Below are positions 1 to 11,983 of a DNA stretch of 64,000 bases, in pieces. The DNA is from Escherichia coli 042 (lineage in GTDB: Bacteria; Pseudomonadota; Gammaproteobacteria; Enterobacterales; Enterobacteriaceae): assembly GCF_000027125.1 (NCBI RefSeq), contig NC_017626.1. The stretch is one strand, 5' to 3'. Below the pieces are notes generated by a model that was not told where the DNA came from, ran no database searches, and saw only the letters and a list, made by a program, of their open reading frames with translations. The number at the start of each line of letters is the position of its first letter. Positions within the stretch are counted from its first letter, which is position 1. The translations under genes were made by a program, and so were the position numbers.

Positions 1-469
1 TACAGGGTTCGGTGATGGTATAGCGGTATTTGTGTGCGCCTGTGCGTTCCGGTACAACACACCCCGGCGCATAAGGATGAAGTGATTTTGGCTGCCCGTC
101 CTGCCCCCACTCAATAACCGCATAGGCGTTACCGTTCAGCAGACAGTGACGCATCATTGTGCGTTTAAACTGGTAAGGTGTCTGGCACGAATTAGGCTGC
201 TCATTCAGCAGAATATCTACCGGATGACTGTCCAGCCATTCCCGCGCCTCCCTGCCCTTGTCATTACGTACCAGATACAGATAACACGGCATCGTGGCCA
301 CCGCCTCAGCGATGACAGAAACCGCGTTCATCACAGCAGGCAATGATTCAGCCGTCCCGGCAGAAACATATTCTCCGGATCCGGTATTCGGTACGCCGGA
401 CAGCGCCAGAAAATCATCAATGGACAGGTTACGTTGCTCGCTTTTTTTACGACTAAAAGGCCACCACAT
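1..469 (-). CDS. phage portal protein, HK97-type (N-terminal part only; gene continues beyond window start)
   Basis: Hand translation of minus strand from ATG at 469-467 gives MWWPFSRKKSEQRNLSIDDFLAL..., an N-terminus typical of HK97-family portals; start overlaps protease stop (ATGA). Absent from ORF track because the stop lies outside the window. Confidence 0.5.
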   Translation of the reverse strand, partial: MWWPFSRKKSEQRNLSIDDFLALSGVPNTGSGEYVSAGTAESLPAVMNAVSVIAEAVATMPCYLYLVRNDKGREAREWLDSHPVDILLNEQPNSCQTPYQFKRTMMRHCLLNGNAYAVIEWGQDGQPKSLHPYAPGCVVPERTGAHKYRYTITEPC

Positions 470-470
470 A

Positions 471-1031
471 TCACAACCCCGCCAGTTCAGCCCAGCGATG
501 ACGATTATTTCCTGCCGGGCGTAATTCAGGGTGCTGTGCAAACAACGAACGGTGGGCAATCTCCACGCCAGATTCTGGATAAGCAGGCATCGACGTTATT
601 GTGATTTCTCGGAGTTCAGCGGCGGTTACGGTACGCAAATACGGTTTTTGCGCGATATTCCATTCTTCGCATAATGCGCGAAAGCCAAAGCTCATTCCTG
701 TAATGTCGCCACGCGACACCAGCGTGAGCACATCTTTTCCAAGCTGGGTATCAGGCGGTGTCAGTTCAAAACGTAGCCCGGTGTTGTCCCCAGTCAGTAC
801 CAGAGTGCCGGATTTGGTGCGCCCCAGCAGTTGGGTATAGTCATGCTCATACAGGCAGCGCACATCATTACCCGCCGCCAGATAGTCAGCAAAAGCCCCC
901 GGCGTGAACTGTTCGCGGAATTCGTCCCAGATAATTTCTGAAAGGCTGTTCCAGCGAACGGCATACCCCACCAGCTTTTTATTGCTGGCGGTCAGTTCAG
1001 ATGTGCGGATTTCAAAATCGGTGTTTTTCAT
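471..1031 (-). CDS. HK97-family prohead maturation protease (S78)
   Basis: 186 aa; motif pattern VGYA..WN...D.F.E.F.PGAF......HD...LGRT.SGTL.L..D..GL.F......GD..G.SFGF typical of prohead proteases. Confidence 0.8.
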   Translation of the reverse strand: MKNTDFEIRTSELTASNKKLVGYAVRWNSLSEIIWDEFREQFTPGAFADYLAAGNDVRCLYEHDYTQLLGRTKSGTLVLTGDNTGLRFELTPPDTQLGKDVLTLVSRGDITGMSFGFRALCEEWNIAQKPYLRTVTAAELREITITSMPAYPESGVEIAHRSLFAQHPELRPAGNNRHRWAELAGL

Positions 1032-1085
1032 CGGTGTACTCCATAAAGCTGAAAAAGGAGGCCGCAGCCTCCTCCTTACTCATGA

Positions 1086-9360: not shown

Positions 9361-9594
9361 TCAGGGTTTCCATTCACCTTTTACCCATTCCAGCACCTCA
9401 GATAAGCGCCAGACTTTTGTTTGTGGGCCAATACATATTTTTCGTGGAAATTTTCCTTCCTTTTCAAGTAACGATCTGTGTCTCCTGCCAAGAGCGGTTA
9501 ACCATGCACATTCATCTTCCTTAATCATCCTGTCGATTGTTTCATCATTTTCAAGTTCTTCACGCGTAACTATTTGAATCATTACTGTCACCAC
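9361..9594 (-). CDS. alpA: AlpA-family prophage regulatory protein
   Basis: 77 aa; HTH then FPRKICIGPQTKVWRLSEVLEWV, classic AlpA signature; directly downstream of integrase. Confidence 0.65.
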   Translation of the reverse strand: MVTVMIQIVTREELENDETIDRMIKEDECAWLTALGRRHRSLLEKEGKFPRKICIGPQTKVWRLSEVLEWVKGEWKP

Positions 9595-10783
9595 TAATTT
9601 GCTTATTCAGATAGTCGTACCACCAGTTCATAGCTTCTTTTTTTCTGTCCATATACTGGCTTCTGTTATAAACCCCGGCAACACCGCCTAATGTGTGCCC
9701 AAGCAACTGTTCAACCACATTATGTTCAAAACCATGATCACTTAGTTTTGTGGCAAACACTCTTCGCATATCATGCGCCGTCCATTTCTCCGAGTGTTTC
9801 ATCCTTTTCCATGTCTTACCGATAGTTACGCTTGCCGTACACTGACGCATATCAAACCCAATCACATTTTCTTTGTTACCTGTTATTTTTTTTAACGTAA
9901 CTAACCAGTTAAACATGCCATCAGGAATCGGTCTGATTATTTCCCTGCCATTTTTGCTATGATCAGCGGGAACGCGCCATAATTTCTTATCAAAATCCCA
10001 CTCTACCCAGGACGACAGTAATACTTCTGACAGTCGACAACCAAAAACTACCAGGAAACGTAAAATAATTCGGTTTTCATATGATAATTCGTGATTGTCA
10101 TAATCAGTATTAATACTTCGCCATAAATCTCTGATTTCATCATCTGTTAAAACCCTGCTTCTTCGCGCAGACTTTTTTCCCACATCACAGACCTCAAGAT
10201 CATCAATTTCATGACTAATCGCGTATTTTCTTACCCTACAAAATTTAAGCGCCTGTTTTGATATACGCAACAAAGCTCCGGCCTGTACAGGTGCTACTTT
10301 TTTTATTTTGTCAAAACACTTAATCCACATAGATATAGAGCAATCACTAAGTGGTACATGACCAATCACCGGATAAATATGTTTACCAAAGCACTGCCTG
10401 ATATGTTCTGCTCCCCTACGCTTATCCATTGCATAATTATCAAGCCAGTATTCAAGTGCCTCACGAACGGTAACAGGTTGCAAGGTGGCTTCCCGTTCAA
10501 TTTTTATCTGAATCCGTGGATCTCTGCCCTCCGCAAGCCAAGTTCGACACTGATCGCGCATCTCTCTCGCTGATTTGAGACTCAGATCAGGATATTTTCC
10601 AAGTGTCAGCCAGATGGGCGCGGTTTCCCTTCCCGCCAGTCTGTAAAAGAAAACAAAACTAACACATCCGTATTTACTGACCCGTACCGAAAGCCCGTTA
10701 CCATCAGCGATGGTTTCCTGCCTCTCACTCCTGCGTCCAAGCAGGGAACGAAGTTTTTTATCGCTCAGTTTGTTTAGCGCCAT
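9560..10783 (-). CDS. P4-type tyrosine integrase of the satellite island
   Basis: C-terminal 407 aa of the 807-aa ORF beginning at internal Met (MALNKLSDKK; ATG at 10783-10781); N-terminal arm-binding domain and C-terminal HDMRR...LGH...Y catalytic motifs. Confidence 0.85.
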   Translation of the reverse strand: MALNKLSDKKLRSLLGRRSERQETIADGNGLSVRVSKYGCVSFVFFYRLAGRETAPIWLTLGKYPDLSLKSAREMRDQCRTWLAEGRDPRIQIKIEREATLQPVTVREALEYWLDNYAMDKRRGAEHIRQCFGKHIYPVIGHVPLSDCSISMWIKCFDKIKKVAPVQAGALLRISKQALKFCRVRKYAISHEIDDLEVCDVGKKSARRSRVLTDDEIRDLWRSINTDYDNHELSYENRIILRFLVVFGCRLSEVLLSSWVEWDFDKKLWRVPADHSKNGREIIRPIPDGMFNWLVTLKKITGNKENVIGFDMRQCTASVTIGKTWKRMKHSEKWTAHDMRRVFATKLSDHGFEHNVVEQLLGHTLGGVAGVYNRSQYMDRKKEAMNWWYDYLNKQISGDSNDSNSYA

Positions 10784-10948
10784 GTGATTTATAACCCGTT
10801 TTTGCAATACACAGTGCAATACACAAATGATGAAAACAGCCAGAACCTTCCAGAAAAAACAAAAACGACGAACAAGAAAAAAATCTTTTTCTTTCATTTG
10901 GTTACTAAAAAAATCAGGACAGGTCGCACTGTTGTTACGGCGTGATGT

Positions 10949-11983
10949 TACTTTCTTGGTAAAAAAATTCACCCGCGCAGAGACCTGCTCCTTCGCTTTT
11001 TTCGCCAGACGACGCAGATCATCCCAGCGTTTACAGATGCCCAGGCCAGGATTCGCTTTCTGCCAGACCGTTTCATCAAACGGATCATCTCCCTCATCGA
11101 GCGTGTAAATGATCGCAAAGTAAGAGTCGTCTTTTACAGCGCCCTCCACGTCGCTGTTATAGCCTCGCAATACCTTGATGGCGTAATCACGCTGCTCGTA
11201 ACAAATCCCTTCCTTGTTAAAGCCAGCCGTGGTGATACCAAATAACAAGGACTGCAGACGGGCACCGGTTGCCGTTTCCAGAACGTCCCACACGTCGCGG
11301 GTTTTATGTGCATGCAGCTCATCAATAATGGCGCAGTGGATGTTCAGACCGTCCAGGTTGTTTGCATCCGAGGAAAGCGGTTCAAATTTTGATGCGCTCT
11401 GCTCCTGGTAAATCGCCAGCTTGTTGAAATCAAACAACCGCCCGAGTGTCGACCGGGCTTTTCTGACCATATTTTTGGCGTCTTCAAACACGATTCTGGC
11501 CTGGTCACGCGTGGTTGCGGCTGAATACACCTCAGCTCCGCCTTCACTATCTGCCCCCGTCATATACAGGCCGATACCCGATGACAGGGTTGATTTTGCG
11601 TTTTTACGGGCGACTTCGTTGTACGCCGTCCGGAACCGGCGCACCATCACCGGACGTCCGCTGCCATCGCTGCGCATGACAACTTCCCCGGTTTCTTCAT
11701 TGACCAGCGGAATGACAAAACCAAAAATATTAATGAGGATAAATACATGCCAGTCCATCAACTCAATGGGCTGGCCTGCCAGTGCCCCTTTTACATGAGG
11801 CACAAATTTGTAGAAATTCAGGATGTGCTGCGCACGGGGTTCACTGAAATAAATCCCCCGCTTTTCGCCGTACTTCAGATCATCAAGAAAACGCTGGCAG
11901 GCCAGGCGGACAAATTCGCCAGCAACAATTTCTCCTGCAACAACACGTTCGGCGTAGCGGATCCCGTCAGCCACTTTTGCCAT
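10949..11983 (-). pseudogene. prophage terminase large subunit, 3'-truncated (ATPase domain only)
   Basis: First ~345 codons of 807-aa ORF: Walker A-like RRFRTAYNEVARKNAKS, Walker B AIIDELH, ANPGLG; similarity ends near 10950 where AT-rich island DNA begins; nuclease domain missing. Confidence 0.75.

Follow-up and report, generated by a model that had tools for sequence, protein, structure and literature searches.

A phage satellite with its own capsid genes embedded in the large-terminase gene of a lambdoid prophage in Escherichia coli 042

In Escherichia coli 042 (assembly GCF_000027125.1, contig NC_017626.1), a block of satellite-type genes that also carries capsid genes adjoins the late genes of a lambdoid prophage. 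The locus raises the question of whether this block is a mobile element in its own right and, if so, how it is lodged in the prophage. We analysed a stretch of 64,000 nucleotides, hereafter the window, in which an initial annotation made from the sequence alone had proposed a capsid-encoding satellite of P4 or phage-inducible chromosomal island (PICI) type at positions 1–10950, nested in cis in its helper. Window 1–10955 is a phage satellite with its own capsid genes, embedded in the large-terminase gene (terL) of the prophage, its helper. The satellite totals about 15.3 kb, of which the integrase-proximal 11 kb or so fall in window 1–10955; about 4.3 kb lie beyond the left window edge, as estimated from a full copy of the element at a related E. 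coli locus (NZ_OZ501612.1, hereafter L001; the coordinates of related loci are in their own numbering). The core satellite genes and the large open reading frames (ORFs) of window 1–10955 all lie on the minus strand.

The right end of the satellite was located by alignment with intact terL genes. The features at this junction, with the attachment site abbreviated as att, are as follows.

10956–10962, minus strand: att core TTACCAA, the int-side junction and right end of the satellite (intact-terL alignment)
10956–11983, minus strand: 5′ part of the helper terL, codons 1–343, covering the ATPase domain and the start of the nuclease domain (phrog_9, E 2e-108)
10803–10825, minus strand: doubled arm-type motif tgTGTATTGCactgTGTATTGCa, about 133 bp from the core

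Positions 11983–10956 are 99.7% identical to nucleotides 1–1028 of the 1758-nt terL of Escherichia phage PhiR49_2, and the homology ends there. Nucleotides 1015–1758 of the same phage gene align to L001 10723–9980, 15.3 kb away from the 5′ half. In strain GTEN_97 (locus L003), the same prophage occupies the same tRNA-Ser/mtfA/tRNA-Asn locus with an uninterrupted TerL of 585 aa. The satellite was thus inserted site-specifically, since the intact terL genes of PhiR49_2 and GTEN_97 join both halves exactly at TTACCAA. This core corresponds to terL nucleotides 1022–1028 (codons 341–343), within the TerL nuclease domain (Pfam, residues 283–563 on the intact protein). The two junctions read GTGAATTTTTTTACCAA followed by GAAAGTAAC and AAATATTCTTACCAA followed by ACACATGAATG, with the common 7-bp core set within a 12/14 imperfect repeat. 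The satellite splits the helper gene and supplies no substitute for its 3′ part at the junction, and the satellite is oriented as the prophage late operon is. A partner to the arm motif was found at L001 10813–10791, at the distal end of the element, across the core at a distance of about 80 bp; arm-motif-to-core distances were counted by hand.

The right boundary first proposed, 10950, fell a few bases off the true end at the core, and the placement of the element inside a prophage late gene was borne out, as the 1028 nt of terL 5′ sequence are followed by prophage terS (the small terminase subunit gene), an HNH endonuclease gene, lysis genes and Q, up to tRNA-Ser. A long direct repeat at both ends of the full copy was also sought and rejected, the k-mer search returning only the 11-mer arm motif. 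The att repeat escaped that search because its core is just 7 bp long, and the junction was solved by the intact-terL alignment instead. In the 042 genome, the leftward junction would be expected to read AATATTCTTACCAA, then ACACATGAATGTG, joined to the terL 3′ half; terL restored by satellite excision would read GTGAATTTTTTTACCAAACACATG.

The L001 copy shares 98.6% identity over 92% of window 1–12000 (98% over the two main aligned blocks), and the full element there measures 15,280 bp from core to core. Past the portal gene, its order is head-tail connector, HNH endonuclease, a small ORF, TerS of the P27 family, a complete TerL of 553 aa and the distal att. Beyond that site stand the 3′ part of the helper terL, then the helper portal, protease, capsid and connector genes and lambda-like tail genes. 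The window itself holds the satellite capsid protein, protease and portal N-terminus; the connector, HNH, TerS and TerL are read from L001 only.

The layout of L001 bears on the idea that the block is an internal prophage rearrangement or head-module duplication and not a separate mobile element, as in full relatives the stretch to the left of the capsid genes does include a terL 3′ half and tail genes. The initial annotation had itself named contiguity of the capsid genes with tail genes and a TerL 3′ half as the finding that would speak against a satellite. No such contiguity was found in L001, because the satellite connector, HNH, TerS and TerL genes and a precise att junction separate the capsid genes from the terL 3′ half and tails, and because the prophage has its own portal, protease and capsid genes, whose products are only 25–40% identical to those of the satellite. 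By protein, satellite and helper in L001 share 25% identity in the capsid, 30% in the portal, 32% in TerL, 38% in the protease and 41% in HNH. The block also bears int, alpA, a primase gene and an origin and is bounded by the 7-bp core and arm motifs, and in related prophages and phages the two terL halves meet exactly and enclose no other sequence. Rearrangement or duplication was ruled out on the low identity and the exact terL joins, and we consider it extremely improbable.

The genes of the satellite in the window are listed below.

1–469, minus strand: portal, N-terminal 156 codons only (phrog_12, E 5e-37; TIGR01537 portal_HK97; equivalent to L001 15001–15469 of the portal gene 14255–15469)
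471–1031, minus strand: HK97-family prohead protease (phrog_80, E 1e-57; TIGR01543, E 5e-38)
1086–2255, minus strand: HK97-fold major capsid protein (phrog_10, E 2e-92; TIGR01554, E 8e-102)
2542–3048, plus strand: accessory ORF of 168 aa (phrog_5789, function unknown, full length, E 4e-86)
3084–3371, minus strand: small conserved hypothetical protein (phrog_1957, E 2e-36)
3365–3673, minus strand: PerC-family transcriptional activator (phrog_994 and phrog_10396; L001 homologue named 'PerC family' in RefSeq)
3677–4102, minus strand: single-stranded DNA-binding protein, SSB (phrog_44, E 8e-39; TIGR00621 above cut-off)
4166–4290, no strand: iteron cluster, putative replication origin (five ATAACCCGC-type iterons in direct orientation and two GCGGGTTAT copies in inverted orientation, flanking an AT-rich spacer)
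4313–6433, minus strand: DUF927 primase/helicase-type replication protein, 706 aa (phrog_1139, E 3e-176)
6430–7172, minus strand: DUF4222 protein and two small ORFs (phrog_285, phrog_2196, phrog_340)
7165–7368, minus strand: Icd-like small protein (phrog_6196, E 1e-46; L001 label 'host cell division inhibitor Icd-like')
7574–8002, plus strand: two small ORFs inside the Bro zone, one YlcI/YnfO-like and one unknown (phrog_949, phrog_21027; L001 annotation)
8383–8961, minus strand: Bro-N domain anti-repressor-like protein (phrog_2593, E 7e-86)
9019–9327, minus strand: second AlpA-family regulator/excisionase (Pfam PF05930, E 9e-10; phrog_2790)
9361–9594, minus strand: AlpA-family regulator/excisionase adjoining int (Pfam PF05930, E 2e-9)
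9560–10783, minus strand: satellite tyrosine integrase (Int), 407 aa from the ATG at 10783 (phrog_1, E 1e-56)

Every satellite gene named in the initial annotation (integrase, AlpA regulators, Bro-N, primase-like protein, SSB and PerC-like regulator) is present with strong family scores. The capsid, protease and portal genes it reported are likewise all there, but of the portal only the N-terminal 156 codons are seen, the gene being cut by the window edge. The PICI core of int, alpA and pri-rep in one orientation is present in the window. The iteron cluster, placed between the DUF927 gene and ssb by a tandem-repeat scan and sequence reading, is probably the satellite replication origin, given its position just downstream of the primase gene.

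The closest characterised relative is EcCIEDL933, the model capsid-forming PICI (cf-PICI) of Alqurainy et al., which makes its own small capsids, relies on HNH, TerS and TerL of its own for DNA packaging and takes nothing but tails from a helper, a dependence shown with helpers HK106 and HK446 (bioRxiv 10.1101/2022.09.08.507074). We located it at NZ_CP008957.1 1680329–1694760, between roxA and phoQ in the phoQ region of EDL933. Both elements follow the order int, alpA, Icd-like, DUF4222, DUF927, SSB, PerC, capsid, protease, portal, connector, HNH, TerS and TerL (from the connector onwards as read in L001), measure about 15 kb and are devoid of tail and lysis genes. TerL is 93% identical (compared with the L001 relative), and DUF927 and the capsid protein of the window are 82% and 63% identical to their counterparts. 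All satellite ORFs in the window are full length relative to their families or to EcCIEDL933. In contrast, Int is only 42% identical, the window element has an extra AlpA gene and a Bro-N gene, and the target is chromosomal in EcCIEDL933 and a prophage gene here. On its gene content the element reads as a cf-PICI, and the likeness to this class already suggested for the block gains support from the EcCIEDL933 gene order and the 63–93% identities. The cf-PICI study reported six chromosomal attB sites and used the search rule that attachment sites are never occupied by prophages (bioRxiv 10.1101/2022.09.08.507074). The site described here lies inside a prophage gene and so departs from that rule, which is a screening rule and not a biological property.

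As its full copy encodes a complete head and DNA-packaging set, the element could instead be taken for a small phage, whether autonomous or defective, or for a hybrid of phage and PICI; this was also the initial idea of the discoverers of cf-PICIs (bioRxiv 10.1101/2022.09.08.507074). However, annotations show no tail or lysis genes in window 1–10955 or in the 15,280-bp full copy of L001, the int-alpA-Bro-primase layout is that of Gram-negative PICIs, and EcCIEDL933 depends on helper tails and helper induction. A phage or hybrid is accordingly very improbable, and a satellite remains our reading.

The description of the element as 'P4/PICI-type' holds for its PICI half, as it is related to EcCIEDL933, but 'P4-type' is loose. 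Like P4, it is an integrative satellite whose integrase falls in a related superfamily, and it too has a regulator of AlpA type, an Icd-like gene and a large replication protein of primase type. Unlike in P4, the replication protein is of DUF927 type, and the element encodes a capsid of its own where P4 resizes that of its helper. P4 sid, psu and delta were absent from the PHROG and RefSeq annotations, with no dedicated hidden Markov model search run for sid or psu. No P4-like CI, C4 or isrK RNA was detected with Rfam at gathering thresholds in window 1–35000 or at E ≤ 1 in window 6400–11000.

The insertion site places the element in a second published class. Tommasini, Mageeney and Williams (2023, NAR Genom Bioinform 5:lqad036) described helper-embedded PICIs (HE-PICIs), 491 of which were mapped to 14 prophage late-gene sites; their integrases form a clade whose subclades track the insertion sites (PMC10111431). 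The supplementary tables of that study hold E. coli elements of 15–16 kb named '...A_Terminase_1_246' with the identity block 'ttaccaa', for example Eco1645.15.A_Terminase_1_246 and Eco11701.15 in helper Eco11701.57.S; one of the listed elements is part of a 57-kb composite at a tRNA-Ser gene (PMC10111431). According to the same study, the attP sites of HE-PICIs alone carry a doubled motif, tgTGTATTGCantgTGTATTGCa, placed about 81 bp upstream and about 132 bp downstream of the centre (PMC10111431). The element described here shares with this group the prophage terL target, the core ttaccaa, co-orientation with the helper gene, the 15–16 kb size and the succession of Integration, Bro, Replication and Late zones. 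It also has the doubled TGTATTGC arm motifs at the published spacing. Window 11020–10855 reproduces the published attL (e.g., of Eal37) except for a single T within a T-run, and the distal junction of L001 is the same as the published attR. No difference of substance was found. As judged by its att sequence, the window element is an HE-PICI of site group A:Terminase_1:246; the label is not recomputable, as TerL is now covered by separate ATPase and nuclease families in Pfam, and membership was judged from the att site. One side observation concerns the core: the satellite's own terL (L001 12894–11233, minus strand) has TCACCAA at the site homologous to the helper core, matching it in 6 of 7 bases with different flanks. 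Some published group members have 'tcacgaa' as an alternative core (PMC10111431).

The integrase gene was detected in 35 of 5426 complete E. coli genomes and the int-terL junction in the same number, with the distal junction in 33. About 900 further genomes contain the same terL segment and no such integrase. Together with the att-site and motif identity, the equal counts of integrase-bearing and junction-bearing genomes suggest that the integrase belongs to the HE-PICI clade. They also weigh against the idea that an ordinary chromosomal cf-PICI landed here by off-target accident. Rare events of this kind are on record for the integrase group, such as off-A_246 in DUF333/yeaN (PMC10111431), but the attP carries the HE-PICI-specific arm motifs, and Int departs widely from that of EcCIEDL933, whose island sits beside phoQ. 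We give an accident of insertion next to no probability.

The nested arrangement of a satellite in a helper late gene, at exactly this E. coli terL site, was therefore already published in 2023, and the window element is one more copy of a catalogued group that adds no new principle. The proposal of a satellite embedded in cis in its helper was correct in substance but had missed that both class and site were on record. The main text of PMC10111431 uses neither 'cf-PICI' nor 'capsid-forming', a second cf-PICI paper does not mention embedding, and the connection between cf-PICIs and HE-PICIs was not made in the searched text of either paper.

Only one HE-PICI has been tested experimentally, namely 11capE (Eco567.11capE), whose site is an icd prophage's capsid gene of lambda-E type (PMC10111431). 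For this element, excision of the composite, composite replication and then satellite excision at 2 h were reported (PMC10111431). Like the window element, it sits within a helper late gene, in the same orientation as that gene, and disrupts it with no replacement copy, and integrase clade and arm motif are common to both, according to PMC10111431. It differs in its capsid-gene target, its 11-kb size, its lack of terS and its presumed use of helper cos packaging, whereas the element described here would have a full head and terminase set, as seen in L001.

By analogy with 11capE and EcCIEDL933, induction of the tRNA-Ser prophage would cause the composite to excise and replicate. Late transcription antiterminated by Q would then run through HNH, terS and the truncated terL (terL′) into satellite int and alpA, so that helper late transcription and translation would feed directly into int. 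Int and AlpA would excise the satellite and thereby repair the helper terL. The satellite would replicate from its iteron origin by means of DUF927 and SSB, assemble its own small HK97-type capsids and package itself with its own HNH, TerS and TerL, taking only tails from the helper. Helper packaging would be held back until the satellite has been excised, and its own HNH, TerS and TerL would let the satellite package first.

The passage from terL′ into int is seen at the level of the reading frame. The helper terL′ (343 codons) is in frame with Int through 57 linker codons, giving an ORF of 807 aa (11983–9560, minus strand) with no stop codon across the att site. This ORF requires a run of seven T at 10883–10877. 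With the six-T run of UMNF18 and of the published attL sequences, the terL′ frame is closed by a TAA that lies 5 nt ahead of the int ATG. A TerL′-Int fusion was therefore rejected as a conserved feature, since it depends on the seven-T form and is absent from UMNF18 and the published sequences. With either run length, ribosomes translating terL′ would be delivered to the int start. A terminator scan of the minus strand returned no terminator-like site between terL′ and int; the first ones come after each alpA, as hairpins 3′ of the first (9337–9318) and of the second (9010–8985).

Two annotation effects were observed in this region. RefSeq annotates a 470-aa Int with its start inside terL′ in NZ_OZ501612.1. 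Positions 690–811 of the 812 in the phrog_9 profile ('terminase large subunit') match Int residues 275–406 (E 3e-25), which suggests that this TerL profile has absorbed TerL′-Int fusion ORFs from such composites and may be a source of mis-annotation.

Taken as a whole, a cf-PICI by content of about 15.3 kb, inserted by its Int into the helper terL as an HE-PICI and working as proposed above, is very probably the best explanation of the locus. Several points weigh against it. The window breaks off within the satellite portal gene, and the distal att, the satellite terS and terL, and the helper terL 3′ part with the head and tail genes are known from relatives only. Compared with EcCIEDL933, the full copy in L001 is one connector-type gene short, and its helper bears the insertion sequences (ISs) IS2 and IS421. 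The proposals on excision, replication, capsid assembly, the taking of helper tails and delayed helper packaging all draw on analogy with sister elements, and some composites may be dead ends.

In its full form, the last point would make the composite an evolutionary dead end, in which satellite, helper or both are immobile remnants and the split terL is merely inactivated. Many HE-PICI helpers look truncated, which also counts against a working composite, and no virions were recovered from the model composite (PMC10111431). The IS2 and IS421 copies just mentioned point the same way, as do a frameshift in the helper int of GTEN_97 and the position of the helper late genes outside the window. 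On the other hand, the satellite ORFs in the window show no truncation of their own, and the visible helper has an open int (341 aa), a cI-sized ORF (212 aa), Q, lysis genes and no IS. The junctions are conserved at 96–100% identity in 33–35 genomes, the integrase-bearing isolates coming from human, pig, cattle, poultry and environmental sources. The empty-site phage type also exists as isolated or induced phages, represented among the matches listed by PhiR49_2, Evi, phi467 and the vB_EcoS series. On balance, a dead end appears unlikely, and a working satellite-helper composite remains the preferred explanation.

Neither HK106 nor HK446, the helpers of EcCIEDL933, was among the 40 listed nucleotide matches to the helper head and tail region; a further 83 matching records stand outside this list. 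A copy of the satellite was absent from the phage sequence collection, in which the only matches were capsid modules of 74% identity, from a Klebsiella 'induced prophage' record of 16.5 kb and from one Klebsiella phage. The record LR881103.1 ('Escherichia phage vB_KppS-Ant', 16,548 bp, deposited as an induced prophage) shows this 74% identity across the satellite portal-protease-capsid module, and its size fits a cf-PICI deposited as a phage.

The element exemplifies hyperparasitic nesting, in which the attachment site of a satellite is a gene of its own helper. Helper induction, replication and late transcription would carry such a satellite along, and helper DNA packaging would have to wait for its exit. 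Composites of this kind mislead prophage and satellite callers and yield chimeric TerL-integrase ORFs in annotations. What keeps the locus of interest is the combination of a putatively tail-only, capsid-forming satellite with the splitting of the helper terminase gene. We suggest only tentatively, and with some doubt, that this site group represents the overlap of cf-PICIs and HE-PICIs, a tail-only satellite that splits the helper terL, and that its excision, if functional, would act as a checkpoint for helper DNA packaging.

The helper is a lambdoid siphovirus prophage integrated at tRNA-Ser, with terS and HNH upstream of terL in the late operon. Its remaining features in the window are as follows.

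11983–12964, minus strand: helper terS of the P27 family (11983–12465) and HNH endonuclease (12614–12964) (phrog_83, phrog_144; same genes in L003 and in a further locus, L002)
12965–32475, no single strand: rest of the helper, comprising lysis genes, tRNA-Arg, tRNA-Met, Q, RusA, hok/sok, replication genes, cro/cI, DicF, exonuclease and int

The visible part of the helper looks intact, with HNH, terS, lysis genes, Q, RusA, replication genes, the cI-sized ORF, exonuclease and int, and IS elements were absent from it. The open helper int lies at 31308–32333, abutting tRNA-Ser(CGA) at 32386–32475. Helper RNA genes include STnc100 (15753–15942), hok/sok (20552–20727), DicF (27909–27960), and tRNA-Arg(TCT) and tRNA-Met (16639–16891).

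Within the satellite, the segment at about 6089–7169 (the DUF4222 region) is the sole part without an alignment to the L001 copy, elsewhere 98% identical, apart from 6620–6737 (118 bp, 92% identity). It is thus a different allele, a case of mosaic replacement in the replication/Bro zone. In the adjacent region 7165–8380, a listed minus-strand ORF of 357 aa has family matches in its last 92 residues only, and its last 67 codons are the Icd-like gene. Beyond that gene, the region contains two plus-strand ORFs and several terminator-like hairpins; no known regulatory RNA was detected in this region.

The plus-strand ORF 2542–3048 lies just upstream of the capsid gene and encodes a hydrophobic C-terminus; the 2001–3000 bin has a GC content of 43%. 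This ORF is possibly accessory cargo. PADLOC returned no defence-system matches for eight satellite ORFs, this one included.

Beyond the prophage, window 33467–64000 carries tRNA-Asn, then an integrase gene and ybtS, X, Q, P, A, irp2 and irp1, at about 59% GC. This segment is the Yersinia high-pathogenicity island (yersiniabactin) at asnT, directly beside the tRNA-Ser prophage.

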